Source of the DNA: Gammaproteobacteria bacterium
GTDB lineage: Bacteria; Pseudomonadota; Gammaproteobacteria; 21-64-14
Reading direction: 5' to 3'
Length of the DNA: 64,000 nucleotides
Assembly: GCA_027013145.1 (NCBI GenBank)
Contig: JALUXX010000011.1
Coordinates: forward strand, 192,556-256,555
Below are positions 12,000 to 58,301 of this stretch, piece by piece. Within the stretch, counting starts at the first letter, position 1; each line of letters begins with the position of its first letter. The notes under the pieces are model-generated. The model made no database searches. It was not told the origin of the DNA and saw only the letters and a list, made by a program, of their open reading frames with translations. Both the position numbers and the translations under genes were made by a program.

Positions 12000-13259
12000 T
12001 CAGGAGGCGGCGCGCACTCCCGCAGGCGGTGGCGCGGAGACCGCGGGGGCGGGCCCGGGCCCGGGCAGGCGCGGCCCGGTCCCGACCGCGAGTTCGAGCC
12101 CTTTGCGAAAGTGCGTGCGGGCGGCCTCGTGCTCGCCGAGCTGTTCCAGCAGACCACCGAGTTCCTGGTGTGCGGCCGCCGTGGGCGCGGCGCCGAGGCT
12201 CGCCTCGAGATAGCTGCGGGCCTTGCCCCACAGCCGGTTGCGCAGGCACAGCCGTCCCAGCGCGAGCAGCAGCACGGGGTCGCGCTCGTGCCCGGGCAGC
12301 CAGGCCTCGGCGTACTGAAGCTGCCGGCCGGGATCGGACCCCGCCAGGGTGCCGTAACACTCCACCAGCGGTTCGCTCCACCCGTGCCGCAAGGCCTCGC
12401 GCACGAGCGGTTCGGCCTCCGCCTCGGCGCCCAGGCCGCGCAGCCGCCGGACGTAGGCGGCGAGCAGTTCCGCATCGCGCTGCAGCCGCCGCGGCATCCG
12501 CGCCCGCGCCGCACGCAGTCGCGCGAGATCACCGCTGCGCGCGGCCGCCTCGATGAGCGCGCCGTACGCGCGCCGTTCCAGCTCCGCGGCGCGTTCCGCG
12601 TCGATGACTCCGCGCCGGCGCAGTTGCGGCAGCAGGTCGAGGAGGTGGTCCCACTCGCCGAGGTCGACGTACAGCGTCGTCAACAGCTTGAGCACCTGCG
12701 GGTGGCGCGGCGCGAGCGCGCGCAGGTGGGTGAGCGTGGCCAGCGCCTGCTCGTGCTGGCGCGCGGCCATCTGCAGTTCGGCCTGCGTCAATCCGATCGC
12801 GACGTCCGCTTCCGGCATGCTCTCGTGGGCCGCGGCGAGATACCGGTCGCGGCGCTCGCCGGCCCCCTGGAGCTGGGCGGCGCGCGCCGCGCCCAGATAG
12901 TGGAGCACCGGCGCATCGGTGTTGGCGGCGGAGCGCAGCAGCGTGCGCTCGGCCTCCTCCCAGCGCCCCTCCGCGAGCTGCAACAGGCCGCGAGTGAGCG
13001 CCGCACGCGTGCGCGCCGCACGCCGGCGTTCCTGCCAGCCCCGCACCCGTGCGGGAAGATGACGCGCGCCGGCGACCGCCCGCAACAGTCCGTAGAGCAC
13101 CGCGAAGGCGGCGACCAGCCCCACCAGCACCAGCGACAGCGCGACCTCGATGCGCCAGTGCCCGAGGGCGATCACTACGTAGCCCGGATGCTGCAGCACG
13201 AACACCGCGCCGGCGACCGCGGCCACCAGCGCCGCGAGCACGATGAGCAGCAACTTCAT
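12000..13259 (-). CDS. hemY: heme biosynthesis-associated TPR protein HemY
   Basis: N-terminal TM segment MKLLLIVLAALVAAV then TPR-like repeats. Last gene of the hemCDXY cluster. The upstream part of the long ORF is antisense GC artifact. Confidence 0.85.
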   Translation of the reverse strand: MKLLLIVLAALVAAVAGAVFVLQHPGYVVIALGHWRIEVALSLVLVGLVAAFAVLYGLLRAVAGARHLPARVRGWQERRRAARTRAALTRGLLQLAEGRWEEAERTLLRSAANTDAPVLHYLGAARAAQLQGAGERRDRYLAAAHESMPEADVAIGLTQAELQMAARQHEQALATLTHLRALAPRHPQVLKLLTTLYVDLGEWDHLLDLLPQLRRRGVIDAERAAELERRAYGALIEAAARSGDLARLRAARARMPRRLQRDAELLAAYVRRLRGLGAEAEAEPLVREALRHGWSEPLVECYGTLAGSDPGRQLQYAEAWLPGHERDPVLLLALGRLCLRNRLWGKARSYLEASLGAAPTAAAHQELGGLLEQLGEHEAARTHFRKGLELAVGTGPRLPGPGPAPAVSAPPPAGVRAAS

Positions 13260-14317
13260 CGCCCGGCGCCCGCCCCGGCCGTGGTGCGCGCGGCGATGCG
13301 CCGCAGCAGACGCAGCGACCCGGAGATGTCCGGCAACCGGGTGACCACGCGCGCCCCCTCGAGCCCGCGGATCTCCGCGTCCGCGGCGCGAACCGCCGGC
13401 GCGGCGGCGTCGAAATACTCCTCGAGCCAGCGCGCCGCCGTCTCCAGACTCGTGCGATAGAGCGCAGGTTCGCCCCGCAGGACGGCCAGGCGCGCGGTCT
13501 CGAGCTGCAGTGTGAGGTTCTGGCGCAGGAACCAGCGCTCGTCGGGGGCGAGCATCGGTCGCGGCGGATGGTCCACGCGTCGCACCACCACCAGGCTGCG
13601 CAGGCTCTCGCCGACGGCATGCAGCACCTGGCGCCAGCCGTGCGCCGCCGGGCGCTCGCCGCCGCGGGAGACCGCGGGCGCCGCCGCCACGTGCGCGGAG
13701 GCCGTCGGCAGGGTGCCCACCGATGCGATCAAGGCCCCCAGACGCGCCTCGATCCCGGTCACGTCGGCGACGGGCGCCGCCCGCAGCGCGGCGATCTCCT
13801 GCGCGATGCGCTCGCGTACGGGGCGGAAGGCCGGGTCCGCGAGCGCGGCGAGGCGGCGGTCCGCCGCCTGCAGCGCGGCGATCGCGGTGGCCGCGTCCGC
13901 GCTCAACTGCGCGCGCTGGTTCGCGATCGACAACAGGTACTCGGCTTCGGCCACGCGCCAACCGCCGCGTTCGCGTCCCAGGCCGGTACGCAGCGACTCG
14001 AGCGCGCGCCGCAGATCGCGCACTCCGGCCGCGTTGGCCGCCTCGGCGCGCGCGAGCCGCGCGGAACTCTCTTCGAGCCGGGCCCGCAGCGAGGCGACCT
14101 GGGCGGTGAGCGCCGTGCGCGCATGCTCTGCGCGCCGCTGGTTCCATGCCAGCCAGCCGGACCCGGCGAGCGCCGCCACGGCCAGCAGCAGCGCGACGAC
14201 GGCGACGACCGCCGCCGCGCGCCCGCCGCGGCCGCTCGCCGGCGGCGCCGCGTCCTCCGACTGCGCCCCCGGCTTCTCCTCCGCGACCGGGGCCGGCACC
14301 GTCTCCTGCTCACTCAT
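13256..14317 (-). CDS. hemX: HemX family membrane protein (uroporphyrinogen-III methyltransferase-like misnomer)
   Basis: N-terminal low-complexity region plus TM and coiled-coil regions. Position between hemD and hemY. 4-nt overlap with the hemY start. Confidence 0.85.
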   Translation of the reverse strand: MSEQETVPAPVAEEKPGAQSEDAAPPASGRGGRAAAVVAVVALLLAVAALAGSGWLAWNQRRAEHARTALTAQVASLRARLEESSARLARAEAANAAGVRDLRRALESLRTGLGRERGGWRVAEAEYLLSIANQRAQLSADAATAIAALQAADRRLAALADPAFRPVRERIAQEIAALRAAPVADVTGIEARLGALIASVGTLPTASAHVAAAPAVSRGGERPAAHGWRQVLHAVGESLRSLVVVRRVDHPPRPMLAPDERWFLRQNLTLQLETARLAVLRGEPALYRTSLETAARWLEEYFDAAAPAVRAADAEIRGLEGARVVTRLPDISGSLRLLRRIAARTTAGAGAGR

Positions 14318-21900: not shown

Positions 21901-22057
21901 GTCCGAGGGCCCCGCGCCCCCGCGCGACCCCGCCGTCGGCGAGCGCCGTTGATGGCGATATAACTAGCCGAATGTTAAAGGGAATTCTGTGCCCGGCCGC
22001 GAGCCGCGGCGGCCCGGGGCTCCAGATCCCCGGCTCACGGCCGCTAACCGTGGGACC

Positions 22058-24913
22058 ATGGGGGCGAAAATCCTTACCCACGACCGCTTCACCGGCGAAA
22101 TCGACCGCCGGCAGATCAAGCGGCGTTTCTACGCGATCAACCGCGAGCGCCTCCAGCGCCTGCGCGAGAGCCTGCGCCCGCGCCAGCGGCAGTTCCTCGA
22201 CATCCTGCCGCTCCTGTTCCACGTCAACCACCCGCTGCTCCCCGGCTACGTCTCCAAACGCACGCCGTTCGGCATCTCCGACTACTCGCCGGCCAAGCGC
22301 AGCGTCGAGGCGGCCCAGCGCCTGGCGCGCAGCTTCCACTATCTGAAGCGGGCGCTGCCGAGCTACCGCATCCACGCCCTCTACCTCATGGGCAGCAGCG
22401 GTACGATCGCCTACTCGGAGAAGAGCGACTTCGACGTCTGGGTCTGCCATCACCCGGGCCTGACGCGCCAGCAGCGCACCGAGTTGCGACGCAAGACCGA
22501 CCGGATCAGCGCCTGGGCGCGCGACCTCGAACTCGAGGTCCACTTCTTCGTGATGGACGCCGAGCGCTTCCGCGCCGGCGGCTGCGAGGCCCTGTCCACG
22601 GACAGCAGCGGCCGGATCCAACACCAGCTGCTGCTCGACGAGTTCTATCGCACCGGGCTGCTCCTCGCCGGGCGCTACCCGATCTGGTGGCTGGTGCCGC
22701 CGGAGGCCGAAGACCGCTACGACGAATACGTCCACGATCTCAAGCGCCGCCGGTTCGTGCGCGCGGGCGAGGATATCGATCTCGGCGGGCTGGCCGAAGT
22801 GCCCGCAGGCGAGTTTCTCGGCGCCTCGCTGTGGCAGCTCTACAAGGCCATCGACTCGCCCTACAAGTCCCTGCTCAAGATCCTGCTGATGGAGGTCTAC
22901 GCCAGCGAGTACCCGCATGTGGACCTGCTCAGCCTGCGCTTCAAGCGCGCCGTCTACGAGGGCGAGACCGATCTCGACCGGCTGGACCCCTACGTGATGC
23001 TTGAGGCCAAGGTCGAGGAGTACCTCGACGCGCGCGGCGACCGCGAACGCCTCGAGCTGGCGCGGCGCTGTTTCTACTTCAAGGTCAACGAGCGCCTCAG
23101 CGAACCCGATCTGCCGTCGCGATCCAACCGCCGGCGCGAGGTGATGCGCGCCCTGACGCGCGAATGGCATTGGGGGTCGGTCGAGCTGCACACGCTCGAT
23201 ACGCGCGGTTCGTGGAAGATCCATCGCGTCCTCGAGGAGCGGCGCGTGCTCGTCGATCAGCTCACGCGCAGCTACCAGGTGCTCTCCGACTTCGCCCGCG
23301 ATCACCGGCACGGGGCCTCGATCGACCCGCTGGATCTCAACACGCTCGGTCGCAAGCTCTATTCGTCCTTCGAGCGCAAGGCCGGAAAGGTGGATCTCAT
23401 CAATCCCGGCATCTCGCGCAACCTGGCCGAGGAGCGGCTGACCATCGTCCAGGAGGACGGCGGCCCCGACCAGTCGAAGTGGTTGTTGTTCCGCGACGAT
23501 CCGGGGGTCGCGGAGGCGCGCGGCGAGGGACCGCTGAAACGTGCCCACGGCCTGGTCGAGATCCTCGCCTGGTGCTACTTCAACCGCCTCATCAACCGCG
23601 GCACCGTGATCGGTCTGCAGACCCGCGATTGCGACGTGAGTTACGGGGAGCTGCACGGAATCCTCGACTGCTTCGAGCGCAGCTTCCCCGGCGCGCGGCT
23701 CGGCGACGCGCGTCTGGAGGAGCTGGCGCGTGCCCCACGGATCCTGCAGGCGCTGCTGATCATCAATCTCGGGACCGATCCGATGGCGCACCTGACGCGC
23801 CGCGGCATGCATCTGACCAGCAACCGCACCGACGCCCTGTGCTACGGGGGGCGTTGGGAGAACCTCGCCCTGAGCTTCGACCTCGTCGTGCTCACGAGCT
23901 GGCAGGAGGTGCTGACCTTCCGTTACACGGGCCCAAACGCGCTGCTCGACTGTCTGTGCGATTTCCTCGGCTGGGCCCCGCAGGGCGGTGGGAGCGTGCC
24001 GCGCGTCCCGGCGGCCTACAGCTTCTCCTCGACCCGCGGCCCGCTGATCGCGCAGCGCGTCGAGGGGCTGTTCCAGGACGTGATCAACTGCTTCTACGGA
24101 CTGTGCCGTTCGGACACGGCGCGCTTCATCGTACGCGTGGCGCACCGCTACTATCTGCTCGAGCCGGAGAACCACGTCCCGCGCCACCGCAACCTGTCCT
24201 CGCTCGAAGCGCTGATGGAGCGGCTCGCCGCGCCGCGCGAGGAATTCGGCCCCGTCCTGTTCGACCCGCAGACGCTGCGCGAGACGCCCCTCCCGCTGAT
24301 CTTTCAGGCCGCGCGCCCCGGCCTGGTGGCGTTCTACTACCACCTCGCCGGGGAGCACGCGGAGGTCTACGTCGTCGACGAGCGCGGGTCCCTGTTTCAT
24401 CAGTCCCTGGCGTTCTACGACGAGACCGCACTCCTCGCGCAGTTTCAGCGCTTCCTCGAATCGGTGCGGCACCGCCGCGCGCCGGCCGCGGACACCGCGA
24501 CGGCGCCCCGCGAGCGGGTCGAGTACTACCGGCTGGAGCATCGGGGAGCGGACCTCTGGATGGCGGAGCCCGCGCGGTTCGTGCGCGCCGCCCCGGACGC
24601 AGGCTACTTCGACGTCCAGGTCATCGCCCGCTCGGTGGGCCGGCAGGTGGACTACACGCTCTATTGCGATCACCGGGAGTTCTCCTCGCTCCAATACGGC
24701 GAGGATCTGTACACCGAGTTCGCCCGCCACGTCGTGGCGCGCCGTGAACAGGGCGGGCGCTACCCGATCTATGTCACGGACATCGATGTCTCGCGCGACG
24801 TCCTCGGCGCCGAGGTCCGCGGCGCGATCCAGACCGTCCACTACCTGAACTACAAGAAGCGTATCGAGGAGCGCCTGCGCCGCGCCCTCGACGAACTCGG
24901 GCCGGCGTCCTGA
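22058..24913 (+). CDS. cyaA: class I adenylate cyclase
   Basis: LLFHVNHPLLPGY and class I CyaA catalytic-region similarity, 951 aa. Start at MGAKIL. Confidence 0.88.
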   Translation: MGAKILTHDRFTGEIDRRQIKRRFYAINRERLQRLRESLRPRQRQFLDILPLLFHVNHPLLPGYVSKRTPFGISDYSPAKRSVEAAQRLARSFHYLKRALPSYRIHALYLMGSSGTIAYSEKSDFDVWVCHHPGLTRQQRTELRRKTDRISAWARDLELEVHFFVMDAERFRAGGCEALSTDSSGRIQHQLLLDEFYRTGLLLAGRYPIWWLVPPEAEDRYDEYVHDLKRRRFVRAGEDIDLGGLAEVPAGEFLGASLWQLYKAIDSPYKSLLKILLMEVYASEYPHVDLLSLRFKRAVYEGETDLDRLDPYVMLEAKVEEYLDARGDRERLELARRCFYFKVNERLSEPDLPSRSNRRREVMRALTREWHWGSVELHTLDTRGSWKIHRVLEERRVLVDQLTRSYQVLSDFARDHRHGASIDPLDLNTLGRKLYSSFERKAGKVDLINPGISRNLAEERLTIVQEDGGPDQSKWLLFRDDPGVAEARGEGPLKRAHGLVEILAWCYFNRLINRGTVIGLQTRDCDVSYGELHGILDCFERSFPGARLGDARLEELARAPRILQALLIINLGTDPMAHLTRRGMHLTSNRTDALCYGGRWENLALSFDLVVLTSWQEVLTFRYTGPNALLDCLCDFLGWAPQGGGSVPRVPAAYSFSSTRGPLIAQRVEGLFQDVINCFYGLCRSDTARFIVRVAHRYYLLEPENHVPRHRNLSSLEALMERLAAPREEFGPVLFDPQTLRETPLPLIFQAARPGLVAFYYHLAGEHAEVYVVDERGSLFHQSLAFYDETALLAQFQRFLESVRHRRAPAADTATAPRERVEYYRLEHRGADLWMAEPARFVRAAPDAGYFDVQVIARSVGRQVDYTLYCDHREFSSLQYGEDLYTEFARHVVARREQGGRYPIYVTDIDVSRDVLGAEVRGAIQTVHYLNYKKRIEERLRRALDELGPAS

Positions 24914-24923
24914 CCCCGCCCCG

Positions 24924-25610
24924 TCAGGGGCCCGCCAGGGCCTCCCCCAGCAGCCACGCGCGCAGATCCCGGACCTCCTCGGGGCATACCGTATGGCCCA
25001 TGTCGTAGAGATGCCACTGCGGTGCGTAGCCGAGTTCGCGCAGCCGCCGGCACGAGCGCTCGGCGATCTCCGGGGCGATGACCGGATCGGCGCCGCCGTG
25101 GGCCACGAACAGGGGCAGGTCGCGGTTCGCCGCGGCGGCCTCGGCATCCAGGCGCCCGGCGAGAGGCAGGTAGGCGGATAGGACCGCGGCCCCGGCAAGC
25201 CGCTCGGGGTGACGCAACGCGCTGTACAGGGCCAGCGCCCCGCCCTGCGAGAACCCGCCGAGCACGATGCGCCCGGCCGGCACGCCGCGGTCGATCTCAC
25301 GCTCGATCAGCGCGCGTACGATGCGCCCCGCCGCGACGATCCCCGCCTCGTCCTCGCGCCACCCGGGGCCGGGGAGGGCGAGGTCGTACCAGGCGCGCAT
25401 GCGTGCGCCGCCGTTCAGCGTGACGGGGCGGACCGGCGCGTGGGGAAACACGAAGCGGATGACGGGCGCCGGGGGGAGGCGCAACTGCCCGACCAGGGGC
25501 TCGAAGTCGTGCCCGTCGGCGCCGAGCCCGTGCAGCCAGATCACCGCGGCGTCTGCGGCACCCGACGCGCCGCGCTCCACGCACTCGGGCAATGCGGTGC
25601 CGCCGCTCAT
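24924..25610 (-). CDS. alpha/beta hydrolase, phospholipase/carboxylesterase family
   Basis: GFSQGG nucleophile elbow, HG..D catalytic residues, about 220 aa esterase fold. Confidence 0.8.
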   Translation of the reverse strand: MSGGTALPECVERGASGAADAAVIWLHGLGADGHDFEPLVGQLRLPPAPVIRFVFPHAPVRPVTLNGGARMRAWYDLALPGPGWREDEAGIVAAGRIVRALIEREIDRGVPAGRIVLGGFSQGGALALYSALRHPERLAGAAVLSAYLPLAGRLDAEAAAANRDLPLFVAHGGADPVIAPEIAERSCRRLRELGYAPQWHLYDMGHTVCPEEVRDLRAWLLGEALAGP

Positions 25611-25717
25611 CGCGCCGCCGCCTCCGGCGCCGCGGCCGCGGTGACCGGCGACGGCGGGTTCCCTGTTATACTCGCACGCATCGCAAGCCTGCGGACCCCG
25701 TCACGCCTCCCGACCGA

Positions 25718-25897
25718 ATGGGCATTCTGCCACGAACGGCCTTGGTAGTGGTCCTCGCCGGTCCGGCCCTCGGCGGCTGCGGCCAGAAGGGGCCGCTCTA
25801 CCTGCCGCCACCGGCGGCGCCGAAGTCCTCGGCCCCGGCGAAGCCGCGCCCGGACGACGGCGGGCGGAAACCCGCCGCCGCCCCGCAGGCCCCCTGA
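25718..25897 (+). CDS. small lipoprotein (LptM/YifL/LppL-like) upstream of lysA
   Basis: MGILPRTALVVVLAGPALGGCGQKGPLYLPP: lipobox LGGC followed by conserved GPLYLP. Typical position 5' of lysA. Confidence 0.75.
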   Translation: MGILPRTALVVVLAGPALGGCGQKGPLYLPPPAAPKSSAPAKPRPDDGGRKPAAAPQAP

Positions 25898-25923: not shown

Positions 25924-27174
25924 ATGGATCACTTCCGCTACCGCGACGGCCGGCTGTTCGCCGAGGACGTCGATCTCGAGGCGGTCGCCGCCGCCCACGG
26001 TACACCGTGCTACGTCTACTCGCGCGCCACCCTCGAGCGCCACTGGCGCGCCTTCGACGCCGCCCTCGCCGGGCGCCGGCATCTGGTCTGCTACGCGGTC
26101 AAGGCCAACGGCAACCTGGCGCTGCTGGACGTACTCGCGCGCCTGGGTTCCGGCTTCGACATCGTGTCCGTGGGCGAACTGGAACGGGTGTTGCGCGCGG
26201 GGGGCGCGGCCGGGAAGACGGTGTTCTCCGGCGTCGGCAAGCGCGCCGACGAGATGCGCCGGGCGCTGGAAGCGGGCATCCACTGCTTCAACGTGGAGTC
26301 CGAGGCCGAACTCGAACGCCTCGACGCCGTGGCCGGCGAGGTGGGGGTGCGCGCACCGGTCTCGTTGCGGGTGAACCCCGATGTCGACGCCCGCACCCAC
26401 CCCTACATCGCCACCGGTCTCAAGGAGAACAAGTTCGGCGTCGACCCCGAAACCGCCCTCGCCCTGTACCGGCGCGCGGCCGACATGGCACACGTGGAGG
26501 TGCGCGGGGTGGACTGTCACATCGGCTCGCAGCTCACCGACACCGGGCCGTTCGTCGCCGCCCTCGAGCGCGTGCTCGGCCTCGTCCACACCCTGCGCGA
26601 CGAGGGGATCGACGTCGCGCATCTCGACCTCGGCGGCGGGCTCGGCGTGCGTTACCGCGACGAGTGCCCGCCGTCGCCGGAACAGTACGCGGCGGCGCTG
26701 GCGCCGGTGCTGGCGGGCGAGGATCTGGAGATCCTGATCGAGCCCGGCCGGGCGCTGGTGGCCAACGCCGGCGTGCTGCTCACGCGGGTGGAATACCTCA
26801 AGCACGGCGCGGCGCGCGACTTCGTGGTGGTCGATGCGGCCATGAACGACCTCCTGCGCCCGGCGCTCTACGGCGCCTGGCACGAAATCCAGCCGGTGCG
26901 CCCGCGGCCGGACGAGCGCGCCCGGGTCTACGACGTGGTCGGCGCGATCTGCGAGACGGGGGACTTTCTCGGCAAGGAGCGTGCGCTCGCCGTGCGCGCC
27001 GGCGACCTGCTGGCCGTCCGCGGCGCGGGCGCGTACGGCTTTTCGATGAGTTCCAACTACAATGCACGCCCGCGTGCGGCCGAGGTGTTGGTCGACGGCG
27101 GGCGCGTGCGACTGGCACGGCGGCGCGAGAGCATCGAGGACCTGATGCGGGGGGAGTCCCGACTCGATCCCTGA
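25924..27174 (+). CDS. lysA: diaminopimelate decarboxylase
   Basis: PLP-dependent Orn/DAP decarboxylase motifs (CYAVKAN, GGGLG, CESGD-like EPGR), 416 aa. Confidence 0.93.
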   Translation: MDHFRYRDGRLFAEDVDLEAVAAAHGTPCYVYSRATLERHWRAFDAALAGRRHLVCYAVKANGNLALLDVLARLGSGFDIVSVGELERVLRAGGAAGKTVFSGVGKRADEMRRALEAGIHCFNVESEAELERLDAVAGEVGVRAPVSLRVNPDVDARTHPYIATGLKENKFGVDPETALALYRRAADMAHVEVRGVDCHIGSQLTDTGPFVAALERVLGLVHTLRDEGIDVAHLDLGGGLGVRYRDECPPSPEQYAAALAPVLAGEDLEILIEPGRALVANAGVLLTRVEYLKHGAARDFVVVDAAMNDLLRPALYGAWHEIQPVRPRPDERARVYDVVGAICETGDFLGKERALAVRAGDLLAVRGAGAYGFSMSSNYNARPRAAEVLVDGGRVRLARRRESIEDLMRGESRLDP

Positions 27175-27226
27175 GAGACGGCGTGCGGCACCCGAAAGGA
27201 CCCGCCGTCGTTACCGGAACGAAGGG

Positions 27227-27256
27227 AGGAGGGCGGCCGCGGGCGGCCGCCCTCCG
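27227..27256. terminator. GC-rich perfect hairpin (ggagggcggccgc ggg gcggccgccctcc) between convergent lysA and the repeat-protein gene
   Basis: 13-bp inverted repeat with a 3-nt loop. No T-tract. Possible bidirectional terminator. Confidence 0.5.
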
Positions 27257-27267
27257 GAGGGGGTCGA

Positions 27268-27786
27268 TCAGTCGACCTCGGGGCGATTCACCTCGGGCCG
27301 GTCGATCTCCGGGCGCTGAATCTCCGGGCGCTGGATCTCGGGCTTCTCGATTTCCGGCTTTTCGATTTCCGGCTTCTCGATCTCGGGCCGGTCGACGTGC
27401 GGCCGGTCGACATCCGGTTTGTCCACGTCGGGCTTGTCCACGTCGGGCTTGTCGACGTCGGGCTTGTCGACGTGCGGCCGGTCGATATCGGGCCCCCGGT
27501 GTTCGGGGCGATGCAGTTCGACCTCGCTCTGCGCCCTCGGGTTGCCGGGGACGGCGGCGGTGGCCGGCGCGCCCGGTCCGTTGGACACCGCCGGGGTGGC
27601 CGCCATCGATCCGTCCATCGCGGCGCTCGCCGAGTCGTCACCCACGGTGGCGCCGGTCGTGCCCTGCACCTGGACGTCGACTCCGGCGGATGCGGGGGCG
27701 GCGGTGGCCGTCGCGCCCAGGGACAGCCCGAGCGCGAGCGCCGAGGCCGCGGAAATCAGGAAACCTGCTCTCTTCGTGTGCTTCAT
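27268..27786 (-). CDS. secreted low-complexity protein with 17 C-terminal pentapeptide repeats [DE]-[RK]-P-[EDH]-[IV]
   Basis: Signal peptide MKHTKRAGFLISAASALALGLSLGATATA, Ala/Gly/Thr-rich linker, then HVDKPDVDKPDVDKPDVDKPDVDRPHVDRPEIEKPEIEKPEIEKPEIQRPEIQRPEIDRPEVNRPEVD. GGAGG RBS. Confidence 0.75.
   Translation of the reverse strand: MKHTKRAGFLISAASALALGLSLGATATAAPASAGVDVQVQGTTGATVGDDSASAAMDGSMAATPAVSNGPGAPATAAVPGNPRAQSEVELHRPEHRGPDIDRPHVDKPDVDKPDVDKPDVDKPDVDRPHVDRPEIEKPEIEKPEIEKPEIQRPEIQRPEIDRPEVNRPEVD
27271..27500. repeat. 15-nt periodic coding tandem repeat (about 15 units)
   Basis: Direct sequence periodicity (ctcgggcttctcgat / gtcgacgtcgggctt variants) encoding the pentapeptide array. 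Confidence 0.9.
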
Positions 27787-27815
27787 TGCCGTTACCTCCT
27801 CGTAGAGCGGTACGC

Positions 27816-28598
27816 TCAGAACCGGAGATGAGCGCCGACGCCGACGCCGTAGTCGGGACTGCCGCTGCTCAACCCCAGATCACCGAAGACCTGGAACCCG
27901 GTACCGGGCCGCAGATCGTAGTTCCACGCGGCGATCGCATCGGAGGCCGCCGCGAATCCGGCCTGCTCGGACTGATGGCCGGAGTACATCAGGGTCAGGA
28001 ACTGCCCCGGGACCACTCTCAGGCTGGCGCCGACCTCATAGGTGACGATGTTGCGCAGCGGGAGGTTGGGCGGGGATCCGACGACGCGGTAGCCGATCTG
28101 CCCGAACGGAAACAGGCCGGTACCGATCACGGTATCGGCCTCGAGGCCGAATTCGTAGTCGTTCTCGCCGGTCCCCAGGCCCTTGCTGCGTGAGGCGGTG
28201 GCGAACTTGATCTTCGTGTAGGGCGCCAGATCCGGCATCGCGCCGCGCCCGTGCAGCGTGTACTTGCCTTCCAGCCACAGGTCGCCCAGGCCGCTTTCGG
28301 TGCGCGACGAACCGCTCCCGGTCTTGCCGACGACGGTGCCCCCGGAGACCAGGGCGCCGCTGCTCTTGACTGCGATATAGGGCACGGTGAGCTTGAGTTC
28401 CGCGTTCCCGTCGTGGTAGCGGATATAGGTGGGGACGTACCAGATCTGGATGTTTCCGGGGGTGCCGAAACCGCCTTCGAAATAGGACGGCTGCACGCCC
28501 ACCGTGACCTGCGGTTGGGCCGCCAAGGACTGCGGCCCCCAGCCGGCTCCCGCGCCCGCCAGTACCAATGCCACCGCCACCCGCGCCGCTCGACGCAT
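27816..28598 (-). CDS. outer-membrane beta-barrel protein (putative transporter, MetA/phenol-degradation-like OMP family)
   Basis: Signal peptide MRRAARVAVALVLAGAGAGW, alternating amphipathic beta-strands, C-terminal GAHLRF ending in Phe. Strong RBS. 30 nt upstream of the repeat-protein gene. Confidence 0.7.
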   Translation of the reverse strand: MRRAARVAVALVLAGAGAGWGPQSLAAQPQVTVGVQPSYFEGGFGTPGNIQIWYVPTYIRYHDGNAELKLTVPYIAVKSSGALVSGGTVVGKTGSGSSRTESGLGDLWLEGKYTLHGRGAMPDLAPYTKIKFATASRSKGLGTGENDYEFGLEADTVIGTGLFPFGQIGYRVVGSPPNLPLRNIVTYEVGASLRVVPGQFLTLMYSGHQSEQAGFAAASDAIAAWNYDLRPGTGFQVFGDLGLSSGSPDYGVGVGAHLRF

Positions 28599-28727
28599 TC
28601 GCCTCTCCTTTCTGCCGGTGGATCCGCCCCGGGGGTGATATCCGCCCCGGGCCAGGCCCTGTATTGCGTGGAATTTTATCCCATTCCAAAACTGGAGTGT
28701 CGCCTTTACACTACAGTCTGGTTACGC

Positions 28728-28797
28728 TACGATGGAAATCGTAGTGGGATTTTTTCCCACTGTCAAATGACGGTTCCGTTTCTGTGACCCGGGTCAC
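28728..28797. promoter_or_regulatory. cluster of three palindromes in a divergent promoter (ctacgatggaaatcgtag; gtgggattttttcccac; gtgacccgggtcac)
   Basis: Perfect inverted repeats in the AT-rich 224-bp region between the OMP gene and the DUF6502-like gene. The last lies 26-39 nt upstream of the ATG at 28823. Confidence 0.5.
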
Positions 28798-28822
28798 GAT
28801 CCGGGTCGCGCTGGAGTCGAAG

Positions 28823-29656
28823 ATGGCGGGCAACCCGCTTCAGACCGCGCTGATCGGCCTGCTGCGCCCCCTGGTGCGGTATCTGATCGGGCACGGCTGG
28901 CACTACCCGGCGCTGTGTGCCTTGCTCAAGGGCCTCTATGTCGCGGAAGCCGCCGCCCTCGACGCCGGCGCGGCCCGCGCGACCGACAGCCGCCTGAGTC
29001 TGCTGACGGGTATCCACCGCCGCGAGGTCAAGCGCCTGCGCAAAGTGTGGGAGGGCGCCGCGACCCCGCCCGCGCCCGCACCGGCCGCGAACCTCGCCGC
29101 GCGGGTGGTCGCCACCTGGGCTTCGGCGCCGGAGTACCTCGACGCCGACGGGGCCCCGAGAGAACTCCCGCTGCGCGAGGCGGGCGCGGGTCCCTCCTTC
29201 GAGGGGCTCGTGCGCGGCGTGACCGCGGACGTGCGCGCGCGCTCGGTGCTGGACGAGCTCGTGCGCGTCGGCGCGGCCGAAGAGACTCCCCGGGGCGTGC
29301 GCCTGCGGCGCACGGCCTACGTCTCGCCGCTCCCGGAGGAGAAGCTCGAGTTCCTCGCCGCCAATGTCGGCGACCACCTGCGCAGCGCGCTGCACAATCT
29401 GACCCACCCGGACCGCCCCTATCTGGAGCGTGCCCTGTATCATGATTCGATCCCCGCCGCGGAACTCGACCGGCTGCGCCCCGAACTGGTCCGGCTCGCG
29501 GAGCCGGTGCTGCGCGCGGCCAACCGGCGCCTGATCGACGCGACGACGGTCGGGACCGAGAGTCCGCGGGCGCCGCGCCGGCGCCTGCGACTGGGGATCT
29601 ACTACTACGAGGAGGACAGCGGTGGCCCTGGGACCCCCCCCGACCGTGGAAACTGA
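28823..29656 (+). CDS. DUF6502-like protein with putative HTH (possible regulator); family assignment from memory
   Basis: Conserved N-terminal LRPLVRYLIGHGWHYPALCALLKGLYVAEA and an HTH-like LSLLTGIHRREVKRLR. Start taken at ATG 28823; the ORF itself opens at 28784. Confidence 0.6.
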   Translation: MAGNPLQTALIGLLRPLVRYLIGHGWHYPALCALLKGLYVAEAAALDAGAARATDSRLSLLTGIHRREVKRLRKVWEGAATPPAPAPAANLAARVVATWASAPEYLDADGAPRELPLREAGAGPSFEGLVRGVTADVRARSVLDELVRVGAAEETPRGVRLRRTAYVSPLPEEKLEFLAANVGDHLRSALHNLTHPDRPYLERALYHDSIPAAELDRLRPELVRLAEPVLRAANRRLIDATTVGTESPRAPRRRLRLGIYYYEEDSGGPGTPPDRGN

Positions 29657-29663
29657 GGCGGGC

Positions 29664-30851
29664 ATGCGCCGCGCGCGTCGGCGCCGGCGCACCGGCGTTT
29701 CGCTGCGCCTGCTGCCGGTGCTGCTGCTCGCCGCCCTCGCCGGTCCCCTGTCGCTGGGGGCCCCCGGCGGCGGTATCGGCGGCACCGGTATCACCGGGTT
29801 CGGGCCGATCCAGGGCTTCGGCAGCATCTTCGTGAACGGCCGCGAGTACTTCCTCGGGCCGCGTACCCGCTACACCGTCGACGGGCACCCGGCCGGGCGC
29901 ACTGCACTCCGCGTCGGCGATACGGTGGTCGTGCGCGGGACCGGCGCGCCGGGGCGGCGCACCGGCCGCGCCGCCGCGGTCGCGGTGCGCCACCCGCTGG
30001 TCGGGCCGGTGCAGGCGCTCGCGCCCGACGGCCGCGGCATCGTCGTATTCGGTCAGCGCGTGCGCATCCCCGCCGGGACGCCGGTGGCCAGTGCCGGCGG
30101 TGATCCGGTCACCCTGCGGCGCGGCGACTGGGTGGCGGTGAGCGCCCTCGGCGACGGGCGCGGGCGCTGGGTGGCCACGCGCGTCGCGGTGCGTCATCGC
30201 GCCGGGGCCGCCCCCGCCGGGGTGCGGGCGGTCCTCGAAGGCCGGGTGACGGCGGCGGGCCCCGGCGGCGTCCTGCAGGTGGGGGCCCAACCGGTGCGTC
30301 TGCGCGGGGGGCCGATGCCGGCGCGCGGCGCGGCGGTGCGTATCGTCGGGCGCTACCGCGCCGGCGTGATCGTGGCCGCGCGGGCGCTCCCGGAGCGGCC
30401 CGACCTCGGCGGTCGCGGGCGCTACGTGGAGATGGCGGGGTATCCCACGATGAGCGCGAACGGAACGCTGCACAGCAACGGTGTCGTCCTGCGTCCGGTC
30501 ACGCGCCTCGCCGCGCCCGAACGCGCCGAGCTGCACCGCGACCGGCCGCTGGTGTTCGCCGGGCGGATCGGGGCCGACGGCGCCCTCGACCTGCTGCGCG
30601 TCGAGCCGCCGCGGGCACCGTCGCGCCCGCACGCCGAGCGCGGCGGGGCGGAGCACGGGGCGCAGGTCGAACGCCCCGAGGGCGCCCACACGGAGGGCGG
30701 GAAACCCGAGATCGAGCGGCCCGAAATCCGCAAGCCGGAGATCGAGCCGCCCGAAATCCAGCGGCCCCAGATCGAACGCCCCCAGATCGAGCGGCCCCAG
30801 ATCGAGCGGCCGGAAATCCAGCATCCAGAGATCGAGATGCCGGGCCATTGA
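29664..30851 (+). CDS. secreted DUF5666-domain protein with a C-terminal [EQ]-[RK]-P-[EQ]-I pentapeptide repeat array
   Basis: Signal peptide MRRARRRRRTGVSLRLLPVLLLAALAG, GIGGTGITGFGPIQGFGSIFVNG DUF5666 signature in three copies, C-terminal KPEIERPEIRKPEIEPPEIQRPQIERPQIERPQIERPEIQHPEIE. Confidence 0.75.
   Translation: MRRARRRRRTGVSLRLLPVLLLAALAGPLSLGAPGGGIGGTGITGFGPIQGFGSIFVNGREYFLGPRTRYTVDGHPAGRTALRVGDTVVVRGTGAPGRRTGRAAAVAVRHPLVGPVQALAPDGRGIVVFGQRVRIPAGTPVASAGGDPVTLRRGDWVAVSALGDGRGRWVATRVAVRHRAGAAPAGVRAVLEGRVTAAGPGGVLQVGAQPVRLRGGPMPARGAAVRIVGRYRAGVIVAARALPERPDLGGRGRYVEMAGYPTMSANGTLHSNGVVLRPVTRLAAPERAELHRDRPLVFAGRIGADGALDLLRVEPPRAPSRPHAERGGAEHGAQVERPEGAHTEGGKPEIERPEIRKPEIEPPEIQRPQIERPQIERPQIERPEIQHPEIEMPGH
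30703..30840. repeat. 15-nt periodic coding tandem repeat (about 9 units), paralogous to 27271..27500
   Basis: cccgagatcgagcgg-type periodic units. The DNA resembles the reverse complement of the array in the 27268..27786 gene. Confidence 0.85.
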
Positions 30852-30871
30852 GCCGCCGGGATCGCGCCGCG

Positions 30872-31576
30872 ATGGAACGGATCCCCGAGCCGGAGCTGAT
30901 GGACGAGCCCGGGCAGGTGCGCGCCTACGCCGAGGCGGATTTCGAGGAACCGCACCGGCGGTTCATCGAGGGCTTTCGCGGGGCCTTCCCGCGGCTCGCG
31001 GTGGTCGGGCGGGTACTCGATCTGGGCTGCGGGCCGGGCGATATCACCCGGCGCTTCCTCGAGGCCTACCCGGCCTGCCGCGTCGACGCCCTCGACGGCG
31101 CGGCCAACATGCTGCGCTGGGCCGACCGTGCCCTGACGGCGGCGGGCGTGCGCGAACGGGTGCGCCTGATTCACGCGCGTCTGCCGCAGACCGATCTGCC
31201 CGAACGCGCCTACGACGTGGTGATCTCCAACAGCCTGCTGCATCACCTCCACGACCCCGCTGTACTCTGGCAGGCGCTGCGCCGTCACGGCCGCCCGGGT
31301 GCGGCCGTCTACGTCGTGGACCTGCGGCGCCCGGCGAGCGCCGCGCAGGCGCAGGCGCTCGTCGCCGCCCATGCGGGCGGCGAGCCGCCGGTGTTGCAGC
31401 GGGACTTCCTGCACTCGCTCTGCGCCGCCTTCGAGCCCGGCGAGGTCCGCCGCCAGCTCGCCGCGGCGGGGCTCGGCTCGCTGCGCGTCGCCGCCCGCGG
31501 CGACCGCCATCTCACCGTGAGCGGCCGCCTGCCGGCCGCCCGGCCCGCATGGCCCGGCGGCCCATGCGTGCGGTAA
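30872..31576 (+). CDS. class I SAM-dependent methyltransferase
   Basis: VLDLGCGPGD motif I, acidic motif II, Rossmann-fold MTase architecture. Start at MERIPEPELMDEP. Confidence 0.8.
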   Translation: MERIPEPELMDEPGQVRAYAEADFEEPHRRFIEGFRGAFPRLAVVGRVLDLGCGPGDITRRFLEAYPACRVDALDGAANMLRWADRALTAAGVRERVRLIHARLPQTDLPERAYDVVISNSLLHHLHDPAVLWQALRRHGRPGAAVYVVDLRRPASAAQAQALVAAHAGGEPPVLQRDFLHSLCAAFEPGEVRRQLAAAGLGSLRVAARGDRHLTVSGRLPAARPAWPGGPCVR

Positions 31577-31585
31577 GCTGCGCGC

Positions 31586-32410
31586 ATGCACTTCACCAAG
31601 ATGCACGGGCTGGGCAACGACTTCGTCGTCGTCGACACCCTGACGGCGCCGCTGGACCTCGGCGCCGCGCAGGTGCGCCGCCTCGCCGACCGCCGCCTCG
31701 GCGTGGGCTGCGATCAGGTGCTGATCATCGGCGCCCCCACCGACCCCGCGGCCGATTTCCGCTATGTCATCTACAACGCCGACGGCAGCCGCGCCGAACA
31801 GTGCGGCAACGGCGTGCGCTGCATCGCCCGCTACCTCGCGGATCACGGGCTGGCCGAACGTCCGGAACTGGTCCTGCAGGGCGATGCCGGGCGCGTGCGC
31901 GCGCGGCTGGAGGCCGACGGGGCGGTGACGGTCGACATGGGCATCCCGCGCCTGGAGCCCGCGGCGATCCCGTTCGCGGCCGAACGGCGCGCACCGGGCT
32001 ACACGCTCGAGGTGGACGGGCGCGAGGTGAGCATCGACGCCGTCTCGATGGGCAACCCGCACGCGGTGCTGCTCGTCGACGACGTCGAGCGCGCGCCGGT
32101 GGCGACGCTGGGGCCCGCCATCGAGTCCCACCCGCGCTTCCCGCAGCGCGCCAACGTCGGCTTCCTGCAGGTCGTCGACCGCACCCACGCGCGCCTGCGC
32201 GTCTACGAGCGCGGCGCCGGCGAGACGCCGGCCTGCGGCAGCGGTGCGTGCGCCGCGGCGGTCGCCGGGCGTCTGCGCGGGCTCCTCGACGAGCGCGTTC
32301 ACATCCGCCTGCCGGGCGGGGAACTTGTGCTATCCTGGTCCGGCGAAGGCGCGCCGGTGTGGATGACTGGACCGGCCGTCTCGGTATTCGAGGGACAGAT
32401 CCGGCCATGA
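31586..32410 (+). CDS. dapF: diaminopimelate epimerase
   Basis: MHFTKMHGLGNDFVVVD, both catalytic Cys motifs (NADGS..CGNG and GSGACA), 274 aa. Confidence 0.93.
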   Translation: MHFTKMHGLGNDFVVVDTLTAPLDLGAAQVRRLADRRLGVGCDQVLIIGAPTDPAADFRYVIYNADGSRAEQCGNGVRCIARYLADHGLAERPELVLQGDAGRVRARLEADGAVTVDMGIPRLEPAAIPFAAERRAPGYTLEVDGREVSIDAVSMGNPHAVLLVDDVERAPVATLGPAIESHPRFPQRANVGFLQVVDRTHARLRVYERGAGETPACGSGACAAAVAGRLRGLLDERVHIRLPGGELVLSWSGEGAPVWMTGPAVSVFEGQIRP

Positions 32411-52132: not shown

Positions 52133-52526
52133 CGCCGCCCCGATCCGCGCGCGCCGCCGCGCCCGCCGCCGGGCGGCCGCCCTGGTGTTGCTGGCGGCGG
52201 GCCTCGGCGTGCGCGCGGACGCGACCCTGCGCGACCCGACGCGCCCGCCCGTGCTCGCCGCCCCCGCGCAGGCGCGCGCCGCGCACGCGGCGGTCTGGCG
52301 CCTGACCTCGACCCTGATCTCCCCGCAGCGGCGCATCGCCGTGATCAACCGGCGCACGGTCGAGGCCGGGCAGCGCGTCGACGGCGCGGTGGTGGTATGG
52401 ATCGGCCCGGGCCGGGCGCGGGTACGCCACAACGGACGCGAGATCACGCTGCACCTGCTGCCCGGTGCGGTGAAGACTCCGGCGGGGCGCGCGGCGCCCC
52501 CCGAACGAGAAGGCGGTGATCCATGA
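52125..52526 (+). CDS. mshK: MSHA biogenesis protein MshK (PilP-like)
   Basis: Signal/TM region and the LRDPTRPP motif characteristic of MshK. GTG start. Confidence 0.7.
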   Translation: MSDAAPIRARRRARRRAAALVLLAAGLGVRADATLRDPTRPPVLAAPAQARAAHAAVWRLTSTLISPQRRIAVINRRTVEAGQRVDGAVVVWIGPGRARVRHNGREITLHLLPGAVKTPAGRAAPPEREGGDP

Positions 52527-54406
52527 AGACGAACCCCTTGCGGGGCGCAAGCCCCACGCGCGGCACGATCCCTTATCGGAGCGCGGGCCCGGCACGGGCG
52601 ATGCGCGCCGCGGCGGCGATCGCCGGCGCGATCGCGCTCGCCGGCTGCGCGGCGCTGGCGCCGCCCGCCCCCAAGGCGCAGACCCCCGCTGCGCACGCGG
52701 CGGCGATGCATCACCCGCCCGCGCCCGCCGCGACGCGCGCCGCGCCGCCCGCCGCGGTGCGCCAGGCGCTGCTGCCGCCCGTGCAGTTGAACCTGGGGCC
52801 TGAAGGACCAGGGGCCTCCGGCGCTGCGTCGGGCGCCGGGGCGCGCTTCGACGTGCGCGTCCACGACGCCCCGGCGCGCCAGTTCTTCATGAGCCTGGTG
52901 CAGGGGACGCCGTACAACATGCTGGTCAACCCCGGGGTCAAGGGGCGCATCTCGCTGCGGCTCAAGAACGTGACCATCGAGCAGGTCCTGGAGGCGGCGC
53001 GCGATGTCTACGGCTACGACTTCCGCCGGACCGCGCTGGGCTTCGAGGTGCTGCCCCCGAGCCTGCGCACGCGCATCTTCCAGGTGAACTACCTCGACAT
53101 CCAGCGCCTCGGCAAGTCGGAGACGCGCGTGAGCTCCGGCCAGATCAGCCAGAACCCCTATGGCTACGGGGGCGCCTATGGCGCCGGGGGCGCGACGGGC
53201 GGGATCGGCGGCGCCTTCGGCCCGACGACGGTGGGCGGCGTGGGCAACGCCGTGAGCCTGCCGAGCAGCAGCATCAAGACCAAGACCGACAACGACGTCT
53301 GGAAGAATCTCACCAAGGCGCTGACCGCCATGGTCGGCGACAAGGACGGGCGCCAGGTCATCGTCAGCCCGGATTCGGGCGTCGTCGTGGTGCGCGCCAT
53401 GCCGCGGGAGCTGCACGAGGTGGCGAAGTTCCTGCGCACCGTGCAGGGCAGCCTGCGCCGCCAGGTGATCCTCGAGGCCAAGATCCTCGAGGTCGACCTC
53501 AATCACGGCTTCCAGTCCGGCATCAACTGGGCCGCGCTCGGCCAGGTCGGGACCAACAAGACCCTGCTCTTCGGCCAGACCGGCGGCGGCACGCTGCTCA
53601 ACGGCAAGCCCTCGAGCATCGCGGGCAACAGCGGCGACCTCAACCCGAACGCCCTCAAGCAGGTGGTCGGCACCGCGACTTCGGCCTTCGGCGGGGCCTT
53701 CAGCGTCGCGGCCAACCTGCACGACTTCAACGCCTTCATCGAGCTGCTCAAGACCCAGGGCACCGTACACGTGCTCTCGAGCCCCCGGGTGGCGACGGTC
53801 AACAATCAGCAGGCGGTCATCAAGGTCGGGACCGACGAGTTCTTCGTCACCAACGTCTCCAGCACCACGGTCACCGGCACCACCACCACGACCACGCCGA
53901 ACATCACGCTCACGCCGTTCTTCTCGGGGATCGCGCTCGACGTCACGCCGCAGATCGACGCGAGCGGCGACGTCACGCTGCACATCCACCCCACGGTCAG
54001 CAACGTCAAGGACCAGACCAAGACCATCACCGTGGCCGGCCAGCAGCAGACCCTGCCGCTCGCCTTGAGCACGGTGCGCGAATCCGACAGCGTGGTCTAT
54101 GCGCACAGCGGCCAGGTCGTCGTCATCGGCGGACTGATGCAGACCACGCGCCAGAAGGACGTGGCCGGCACGCCGATCCTGAGCGACCTCCCGGTGCTGG
54201 GCGCACTGTTCCGCCATACCAAGACGGCGCTGGCGAAGAGCGAGCTGGTCATCCTCCTGCGCCCGATCGTCGTCGAGGGCCCGCAGACCTGGGCGCACGC
54301 GGTCGAGGGCGCGCAACGGCGGATGGAGGCGATGGGCGCGGCCCCGGAGGACGCCGCGACGCGGGTGATCACCAACCTCTTCGGCTCCGGCTCCGACGCA
54401 AACTGA
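52523..54406 (+). CDS. mshL: MSHA secretin MshL (GspD/PilQ family)
   Basis: Secretin C-terminal domain (VVIGGLMQ...TPILSDLPVLGALF...ELVILLRPIVV). Possible lipobox LAGC. Alternative start at 52601. Confidence 0.88.
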   Translation: MKTNPLRGASPTRGTIPYRSAGPARAMRAAAAIAGAIALAGCAALAPPAPKAQTPAAHAAAMHHPPAPAATRAAPPAAVRQALLPPVQLNLGPEGPGASGAASGAGARFDVRVHDAPARQFFMSLVQGTPYNMLVNPGVKGRISLRLKNVTIEQVLEAARDVYGYDFRRTALGFEVLPPSLRTRIFQVNYLDIQRLGKSETRVSSGQISQNPYGYGGAYGAGGATGGIGGAFGPTTVGGVGNAVSLPSSSIKTKTDNDVWKNLTKALTAMVGDKDGRQVIVSPDSGVVVVRAMPRELHEVAKFLRTVQGSLRRQVILEAKILEVDLNHGFQSGINWAALGQVGTNKTLLFGQTGGGTLLNGKPSSIAGNSGDLNPNALKQVVGTATSAFGGAFSVAANLHDFNAFIELLKTQGTVHVLSSPRVATVNNQQAVIKVGTDEFFVTNVSSTTVTGTTTTTTPNITLTPFFSGIALDVTPQIDASGDVTLHIHPTVSNVKDQTKTITVAGQQQTLPLALSTVRESDSVVYAHSGQVVVIGGLMQTTRQKDVAGTPILSDLPVLGALFRHTKTALAKSELVILLRPIVVEGPQTWAHAVEGAQRRMEAMGAAPEDAATRVITNLFGSGSDAN

Positions 54407-54410
54407 ACGG

Positions 54411-55346
54411 ATGGCATGCGCCGTGTACCTGCAACACTTCGGACTGCGTGAGGCGCCCTTCTCGCTGACGCCGGACACGGACTTCTTCTTCGCCGACAGC
54501 GGCCACCGCGAGGCGCTCAACGTGCTGCTGGTGGCGCTGCGCGGCGGCGAGGGCTTCGTCCGCATCACCGGCGAGGTGGGGACCGGCAAGACCCTGCTGT
54601 GCCGGCTGCTGCTGCGGGCGCTGGACGGCGAGTTCGTCACCTGCTACCTGCCCAATCCGTTTCTCACTCCGAGCGCGCTGCGCATGGCCTTCGCCGAGGA
54701 GCTGGGCATCGAGTTCCGCCGCAACCTCGGCCAGCACGGCCTGTTGAAGCTCATCCACAAACGACTGATCGGCCTCGCGGCCGCCGGGCGGCGCGTCGTT
54801 CTGTGCCTGGACGAGGCGCAGTCCCTGCCCGACGAGAGCCTGGAGTCCCTGCGCCTGCTCACCAATCTCGAGACCGAGAAGTCCAAGCTCCTGCAGGTGG
54901 TGCTGTTCGGTCAGCCCGAACTCGAACGGCGCCTGGCGCGCCACGGCCTGCGCCAGCTGCGCCAGCGCATCACCTTCGCCTACCGGCTGCACCCGCTCGG
55001 CCGGCGCGCCGCGGCCGCCTACCTGCGCCACCGCCTCGCGGTGGCCGGGCGCACCGACGGCGGGCCGCTCACCCCGCGCGCGCTGCGCGCGCTCACCCGG
55101 GCGGGCGGCGGGATCCCGCGCCGGCTCAACATCCTCGCGCACAAGGCCCTGCTCGCCGCCTACGGCGGCGGCGCGGCGCGTGTGGGAGCGCGACACGTGC
55201 GCCGCGCCGTGCGCGACGGGCGCGAGCGCCTGTCCGTCCGCGGCTGGCCGGCGCGCCAGCTCGGCCAGGCCGTCCCGGTGGCGGCGGCCGCCCTCGCCCT
55301 GGGCCTGGGGTTTGCGGTGGCGTTGTGGACAGGGCTCGTGCGATGA
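54411..55346 (+). CDS. mshM: MSHA biogenesis protein MshM (ExeA-like AAA ATPase)
   Basis: YLQHFGLREAPFSLTPD..., Walker A GEVGTGKT. Confidence 0.85.
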   Translation: MACAVYLQHFGLREAPFSLTPDTDFFFADSGHREALNVLLVALRGGEGFVRITGEVGTGKTLLCRLLLRALDGEFVTCYLPNPFLTPSALRMAFAEELGIEFRRNLGQHGLLKLIHKRLIGLAAAGRRVVLCLDEAQSLPDESLESLRLLTNLETEKSKLLQVVLFGQPELERRLARHGLRQLRQRITFAYRLHPLGRRAAAAYLRHRLAVAGRTDGGPLTPRALRALTRAGGGIPRRLNILAHKALLAAYGGGAARVGARHVRRAVRDGRERLSVRGWPARQLGQAVPVAAAALALGLGFAVALWTGLVR

Positions 55347-56404: not shown

Positions 56405-56512
56405 GGCCTCCGCGCTCAAGAAAAACGGCCTTGCGGTCGATCTGATCGAACGGACCCCGTGCGCGCCGCGGACGCGGCGGGCGCGAGGGACACAAGGAGC
56501 GGGCGGTCGGGC

Positions 56513-58276: not shown

Positions 58277-58301
58277 GCGCGGCCCCGCAGGACGCGAACC
58301 C

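Follow-up and report, generated by a model that had tools for sequence, protein, structure and literature searches.

What fills the 4.4-kb lysA-dapF interval of this gammaproteobacterial genome, and do the genes found there work together? The window analyzed here, a 64,000-nucleotide stretch of contig JALUXX010000011.1, carries five open reading frames (ORFs) in this interval, which encode in succession an exported repeat protein, an exported outer-membrane beta-barrel, a DUF6502 protein, a DUF5666 protein, and a class I S-adenosylmethionine (SAM)-dependent methyltransferase. A preliminary description made from the sequence had presented them as a five-gene accessory island forming a self-contained, locally regulated envelope module. 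Because all five ORFs are intact and each has full-length homologues, the observation itself is confirmed, with small coordinate corrections from the ORF listing and the family scans. The proposal of an envelope module is supported as well, in a reduced form: on balance we favor a three-gene, locally autorepressed module consisting of the DUF6502 protein, the DUF5666 protein, and the barrel, and the locus in the window is one unexceptional representative of a large group of such loci.

The breadth of this family became apparent when a profile of DUF6502 homologues was run against the GTDB species-representative genomes, which returned at least 529 loci; the best 79 were fetched, and cassette genes were located in them by homologue profiles applied to six-frame translations. 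An exhaustive hidden Markov model search with DUF6502 gave 5,461 clusters at 50% identity (E<=1e-3), 3,974 of them with E<=1e-10. Of 85 loci, 77 have a DUF6502 gene followed on the same strand by a DUF5666 gene, and approximately 56 include the barrel in the cassette, where it is either divergent and upstream (24 loci), downstream on the same strand (12), downstream and convergent (12), or in some other arrangement (7). The stop and start codons of the two DUF genes overlap or abut in the window and in L002, L004, L205, and L207, and are separated by 2 nt in L206. In the window itself, the DUF5666 GTG codon at 29622 overlaps the DUF6502 stop, with an alternative ATG at 29664 located 8 nt past it. 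De novo all-against-all clustering of the neighboring ORFs revealed no fourth conserved neighbor family, the other large clusters being alternative-frame shadows of the three core genes. Across the 80-odd loci, joint occurrence is limited to three families, and the notion of a five-gene unit is not supported. Outside the lineage of the window, the cassette sits among unrelated housekeeping genes. Acidithiobacillus ferrianus CP127523 has at least three DUF6502-DUF5666 pairs (L004 6324-11978, and L008), two of them in tandem beside glycosyltransferase and ABC-exporter genes and with no adjacent barrel, and glycosyltransferases lie beside the barrel in Acidiphilium and Acidocella loci.

A 17-bp palindrome accompanies these genes. 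Alignment of eight diverse divergent intergenic regions exposed an invariant core with the consensus GTGGGAA-N3-TTCCCAC, which is found 5' of DUF6502 genes from several phyla. The window copy of this operator, one of the palindromes in the 28599-28822 intergenic region, reads GTGGGATTTTTTCCCAC and occupies positions 28744-28760 (no strand assigned; identified by alignment and site scans), the single good site in the entire 64 kb, while the intergenic alignment also shows a degenerate second copy, GTGGAATTTTATCCCAT, with four mismatches at 28669-28685 (again without strand), the counterpart of which is well kept in L002 (-154) and L006 (-160). A promoter-site scan of the window intergenic region found two promoter-like sites where 0.2 were expected: TTTACA-17-TACGAT on the plus strand (28705-28733), serving the DUF6502 operon, and TTGACA-17-TACGAT on the minus strand (28738-28766), serving the barrel and repeat-protein genes. 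The operator coincides exactly with the 17-nt spacer of the minus-strand site and lies 10 nt 3' of the -10 box of the plus-strand site, and the TTGAC and TAnnAT sequences that flank it recur in other loci. Both TACGAT -10 boxes also belong to another inverted repeat, whose arms they form (CTACGAT-N4-ATCGTAG, 28725-28746) and which was flagged by a terminator scan as well, and the leader regions contain the perfect palindrome GTGACCCGGGTCAC (28786-28799) and CCCGGG-centered repeats (28622-28651).

The association between palindrome and cassette was assessed in both directions. In the forward test, 95 sites with at most two mismatches were found in the 1.32 Mb of fetched loci, and 77 of these fall within 400 nt upstream of DUF6502, regions that make up approximately 2.6% of the sequence; counted by locus, such a site precedes DUF6502 in 51 of 80 eligible cases. 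Several barrel genes located apart from DUF6502 bear an operator copy of their own (L027, L046, L049, L079, and L084). In the reverse test, the exact palindrome was the sole criterion for selecting 120 metagenome contigs, of which 25 carry DUF6502, DUF5666, or the barrel, most of them with the palindrome directly 5' of DUF6502. The palindromic operators of the preliminary description are thus borne out, as the site at 28744-28760 is kept in dozens of genomes, far above chance. At two loci (L162 5033 and L165 2799) an exact palindrome stands approximately 170 nt 5' of a gene for a secreted protein composed almost wholly of GGGGHGGSGGGG-type Gly/His repeats, and it is similarly placed before a Gly/Tyr-rich protein in L135 and a charged-repeat protein in L116; judged by this placement, such secreted proteins may be further members of the regulon. 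A low-GC (0.38) metagenome contig, L090, holds five exact palindromes within approximately 200 nt (2870-3074), accompanied by no cassette gene and no flanking ORF. Literature searches on DUF6502, DUF5666, and the 17-bp palindrome yielded nothing beyond mentions in tables or unrelated papers.

The DUF6502 protein (28823-29656, plus strand, 277 aa) is a putative autoregulator. Its family name, as given in the preliminary description, proved correct: PF20112 scores 87.2 bits against a gathering cut-off of 27, with residues 20-278 aligned to profile positions 5-264 of 268. The database copy begins at ATG 28823 and not at GTG 28784, and an exact look-up of the 290-aa GTG-start ORF came back empty. 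The protein has no signal peptide and is cytoplasmic. Its AlphaFold model (predicted local distance difference test, pLDDT, 80) comprises a helical N-terminus, a Fis-like helix-turn-helix (HTH, residues 55-78), a winged helix (126-161), and a C-terminus of two long helices, so that the HTH noted earlier is visible in the model and the predicted structure has the winged-helix/HTH fold of transcription regulators. A search of the DUF6502 profile against PDB sequences gave nothing significant. The C-terminal helices display the invariant polar residues N181, D184, H185, N192, and R203, with H191 and E202 nearly invariant. Twelve loci of the Acetobacteraceae type, from alphaproteobacterial acidophiles (L021, L023, L025, L030, L032-L035, and L037-L040), carry GINR in the HTH instead of GIHR, a His-to-Asn change, and in 12 of the 12 the upstream palindromic operator is altered to GTGGGTAAAAGTTACAC-like or TATGTGGGTAAAAGTTACAC-like sequences. 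This co-variation is suggestive and would fit a DUF6502 protein that binds the operator, albeit in a phylogenetically confounded comparison, and the co-localization of palindrome and gene is comparative evidence pointing the same way.

The DUF5666 gene (plus strand, 29622 or 29664 to 30851) encodes 409 aa from the GTG or 395 aa from the ATG. PF18914 reaches 48.9 bits against a gathering cut-off of 27 and detects one repeat, at residues 128-188. The DUF5666 protein has a Sec signal peptide and a Gly-rich N-terminus, with one to four GGIGGTG motifs. The AlphaFold 2 model contains four similar beta domains, each an oligonucleotide/oligosaccharide-binding (OB) fold with pLDDT >90, and ends in a disordered tail, which in the window protein is built of PEIER repeats encoded by a 15-nt tandem array (30705-30836, plus strand; Tandem Repeats Finder, TRF, period 15, 8.8 copies). 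The preliminary description had called this a paralogous repeat array. Since charged periodic tails (PEIER, PEK, VEK, and others) occur in nearly all family members regardless of whether a barrel is nearby, the array is a family-wide C-terminal trait and not a local duplication; a dependence of the tail on barrel proximity was considered and not found, tails being equally common in barrel-less loci. Most invariant positions are Gly; the others are M1, F66, S68, E75, and Q145. The DUF5666 profile matched nothing significant among PDB sequences, and the protein has no sequence match to the bacterial OB-fold (BOF) family (YgiW/YdeI). The periplasmic BOF stress proteins YgiW and YdeI/OmdA differ in architecture from the protein described here, which has four tandem OB domains and disordered termini, and the barrel type of their systems is not the one found here. 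TonB/TolA-type spacers are proline-rich, charged segments that separate a membrane anchor from a receptor-binding domain. The DUF5666 tails resemble them in their periodic Pro with Glu/Lys or Glu/Arg and in being predicted as disordered or extended, but they are placed at the C-terminus of soluble exported proteins.

The third core component, the exported barrel of 260 aa (27816-28598, minus strand), belongs to a family of 619 homologues. PF13557 matches 19 of 32 aligned family members (best E=8.5e-11), and the family profile matches FapF (5o65) with E=1.3e-4 over 83 profile positions, which on sequence grounds identifies the barrel as a probable divergent, small member of the COG4313 (PF13557)/FapF superfamily; its mature length is approximately 235 aa, compared with the 270-320 quoted for COG4313. 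The nearest structural relative of FapF is the COG4313 channel Pput2725 (PMC5557850). COG4313 proteins are 12-stranded channels, with an N-terminal segment that occupies the lumen, and are implicated in the uptake of hydrophobic molecules. Among them is SphA, for which strong upregulation by the sphingosine-responsive SphR, the product of the adjacent locus PA5324, has been described (PMC4493636). The SphR-SphA pair of Pseudomonas aeruginosa and the COG4313 channels Pput2725 and TcpY probably share with the present cassette a barrel superfamily, to judge by the PF13557 matches among homologues, and a dedicated neighboring regulator. The differences are that the regulator here is a DUF6502 protein, outside the characterized regulator families, that the barrel is shorter and too divergent for the Pfam model, and that the conserved periplasmic OB-fold partner has no counterpart in those systems.

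In the window, the barrel gene is followed on the same strand by the gene for the small repeat protein (27268-27786, minus strand, 172 aa). The adjacency of this minus-strand pair was described correctly, with the gap now measured as 29 nt and not 30, and the two genes probably share a transcript. In the repeat protein, a signal peptide and a conserved AATPA...PGNP motif precede a run of P-[DE]-[VI]-[DE]-[KR] pentapeptides, in all approximately 13 copies of a 15-nt (5-aa) unit; the encoding array spans 27292-27494 on the minus strand (TRF, period 15, approximately 8-9 copies per row in overlapping rows). Homologues are located 3' of the barrel in L002, L006, L015, L024, and L017. As the protein follows the barrel only in six related gammaproteobacterial genomes, it is clade-specific.

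We propose that a DUF6502 dimer would bind GTGGGAA-N3-TTCCCAC and that, with the operator lying in the spacer of the barrel promoter and just past the -10 box of the DUF6502 promoter, a single bound dimer would repress both divergent transcription units. The tetR-tetA and merR-merT systems are similarly organized, with one palindrome in a shared intergenic region overlapping two back-to-back promoters and with the regulator gene inside one of the two regulated units. A signal would bind the C-terminal helices of DUF6502, presumably at the N181/D184/H185...H191/N192...E202/R203 cluster, and repression would be relieved. The barrel would then enter the outer membrane and the OB-fold protein, together with the clade-specific repeat protein, the periplasm, where the OB-fold protein would cooperate with the channel and, in all likelihood, serve as periplasmic partner to the substrate that the channel passes. 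The closest homologues come from Acidithiobacillus, Acidiferrobacter, Acidiphilium, Acidocella, Thiomonas, Gallionellaceae, and Sideroxydans, with Mariprofundus appearing among the barrel homologues only, which suggests a role tied to acid or metal-rich, iron- or sulfur-oxidizing habitats. The DUF6502 family also occurs in Rhodocyclales, Methylococcaceae, Myxococcota, and marine metagenome-assembled genomes. The preliminary description could assign the locus to no described system, and this still stands: in the literature, mention of DUF6502 was not found and DUF5666 appears only in tables. We found no paper that describes a three-gene system in which a single operator governs a regulator of a new type, a protein of tandem OB folds, and a minimal COG4313/FapF-like barrel.

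Several points weigh against an autorepressed module built around an importing channel. Approximately 29 of the 80 eligible loci have no site at two or fewer mismatches, some of them having a divergent variant. A regulator other than DUF6502 could bind the palindrome, and the co-variation between the HTH and the operator, being limited to a single clade, may be no more than a sign of common descent. The window barrel itself has no Pfam match at E<=0.01, and we infer its cooperation with the OB-fold protein, the physical link included. The DUF5666 protein has no conserved Cys/His/Met metal site, and its conserved disordered charged tails are left unexplained by an importer. Finally, the habitat association is drawn from the names of best matches, a sample skewed to the query's own relatives.

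The main rival reverses the direction of transport: the barrel would be a minimal FapF-like exporter that passes unfolded charged repeat proteins, namely the small PDVDK/PEIEK protein, the DUF5666 tail, or both, to a surface coat or matrix. FapF, the functional-amyloid exporter of Pseudomonas, is the only solved structure matched by the barrel profile, its closest structural relative is a COG4313 channel (PMC5557850), and it likewise adjoins genes for secreted repeat proteins. Also consistent with export are the secreted disordered repeat protein found 29 nt 3' of the barrel in six related genomes, the disordered charged repeat tail with which nearly every DUF5666 partner ends, and the exact palindromes that stand 5' of secreted Gly/His-rich or charged-repeat proteins elsewhere (L162, L165, L135, and L116). 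However, the match to FapF extends over only 83 profile positions. A barrel of 260 aa is too short to include the N-terminal coiled-coil and plug domain that, together with the barrel and fapA-E neighbors, characterize a Fap system, and no fapA-E-like genes lie nearby. The repeats are highly charged and proline-spaced, unlike the amyloid-type repeats of the Fap system, most barrel-bearing loci have no small repeat protein, and repeat tails are just as frequent in loci without a nearby barrel. We therefore regard the export model as possible but unlikely. A related proposal, in our estimation improbable, is that DUF6502, DUF5666, and the barrel constitute a minimal, hitherto unrecognized outer-membrane pathway, switched by DUF6502 as a new transcription-factor family with a defined 17-bp operator, in which the barrel would thread or export disordered charged polypeptides into a surface layer protecting against protons or metal cations; the cargo would be the tail of DUF5666, joined in this clade by the small repeat protein, and the beneficiaries would be acidophiles and iron/sulfur oxidizers.

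Metal handling offers another account of the same genes, in which the OB-fold protein would be a CusF-like periplasmic metal carrier, the acidic tails would act as cation sinks, and DUF6502 would be the metal sensor. The taxa of the closest homologues listed above, Mariprofundus included for the barrel, would suit this idea, as would the invariant Asp/His/Asn/Glu cluster in DUF6502. In three Sideroxydans/Gallionellaceae loci (L057, L061, and L069), the gene after the barrel encodes a small secreted Cys/His/Met-rich protein (...CTSCGVCHLAC...), with a TolC-like efflux gene following; at these loci DUF6502 is approximately 800 nt away, compared with the usual distance of approximately 240. DUF5666 also ranks in the top 20 of the Pfam features used by a predictor of growth pH (PMC13255231), but that study gives no direction of effect for it and PF18914 spans many unrelated architectures. 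With no conserved His, Cys, or Met in DUF5666 and with the family also at home in Rhodocyclales, Methylococcaceae, Myxococcota, and marine genomes, we consider the metal-handling account quite improbable.

The age of the block is a separate matter from its function. It is bordered by lysA (diaminopimelate decarboxylase, 25924-27174, plus strand; TIGR01048, 528 bits) and dapF (diaminopimelate epimerase, 31586-32410, plus strand; TIGR00652, 295 bits), the latter followed by DUF484, xerC, and hslVU. Upstream of lysA (window 21989-25897) lie genes for a class I adenylate cyclase (cyaA), an esterase, and an LptM-like lipoprotein, a synteny common to the window and L002. Between the convergent lysA and repeat-protein genes is a GC-rich hairpin at 27228-27255 (no strand assigned), the bidirectional hairpin of the preliminary description, confirmed with perfect 13-nt arms and a 2-nt loop; it is terminator-like, without a U tract. 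Approximately 21 kb downstream of the cassette, at 52520-59525, the window contains GspD-, GspE-, and GspF-like ORFs of a type II secretion system. Such genes are also found near the cassette in L007/L205, L082, and L207, and a link between the two does not generalize across loci.

At the right end of the block is the methyltransferase (30872-31576, plus strand). It scores 64.8 bits with Methyltransf_25, for which the cut-off is 27, and matches Methyltransf_11, Methyltransf_12, and other Rossmann-type SAM models above their cut-offs as well, while no specific NCBIfam equivalog reached its cut-off and a PADLOC search for anti-phage defense systems returned no match beyond a generic methyltransferase-domain hit to mad2. 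The gene adjoins the module only in L001-L003, that is, in the window (L001 being a public contig identical to it) and in 'Chromatiales bacterium 21-64-14', and other matches among the loci are weak and distant (L021 and L062 only). It ends 9 nt before dapF in the window. In L002/L003 approximately 880 nt (12679-13558) lie between the two genes, and a 66-aa GerE-like ORF is called there on the opposite strand in one assembly. We treat the methyltransferase as a lineage-specific addition, unrelated to the conserved cassette and probably inserted later into the dapF transcription unit.

The block as a whole is shared with relatives. 'Chromatiales bacterium 21-64-14' (L002/L003) carries the complete set of five in its lysA-dapF interval, agrees in the outer flanks, and has a DUF6502 protein 68% identical to that of the window, and bacterium BMS3Bbin13 (L006) has four, in the order lysA, repeat protein, barrel, DUF6502, DUF5666, dapF, with no methyltransferase in the interval and a DUF6502 identity of 79%. 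Position and gene order are therefore kept in three species-level genomes, and among the 85 loci a module bordered by lysA and dapF is peculiar to the lineage of the window. The composition of the five genes is native, with GC at third codon positions (GC3) of 0.86-0.91 compared with 0.90-0.94 in the flanking genes and codon-usage scores that differ only slightly from theirs. No integrase, transposase, tRNA, repeats, or scars were seen at the borders of the block. Thus, neither atypical composition, nor mobility genes or att repeats, nor absence from close relatives marks it as a genomic island, and the presence of the same genes at the same junction in relatives, though without annotated functions, largely undoes that part of the preliminary description. 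We think it somewhat probable that the region is a vertically inherited copy of a widespread three-gene cassette with two lineage-specific additions, and not a recent foreign island. That a recently acquired five-gene island split the junction and acts as one functional unit is highly improbable: the order lysA-dapF-DUF484-xerC, which we take to be contiguous in Pseudomonas, the barrel gene with its somewhat low GC (0.67) and a codon-usage score slightly under the flanks, and the quite different housekeeping contexts of the cassette in other lineages, which imply that it has moved over long time scales, are outweighed by the conserved position, the near-flank GC3, the clean borders with a gap of only 9 nt before dapF, and the failure of the methyltransferase and the repeat protein to co-occur with the core elsewhere.

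For the scanning of genomes, the lesson is that a block breaking up a textbook junction is not necessarily recent and can have been passed down vertically from long ago. For the families concerned, two DUFs and a barrel subfamily so far without annotation now allow interpretation as a single regulon, which is testable because its operator is defined and because at least 529 loci are available in species-representative genomes, and the operator permits further targets to be predicted genome-wide. Many of the carriers are acidophiles or iron/sulfur oxidizers used in bioleaching, and the module would be of practical interest if it is true that it aids envelope protection or uptake in such habitats.

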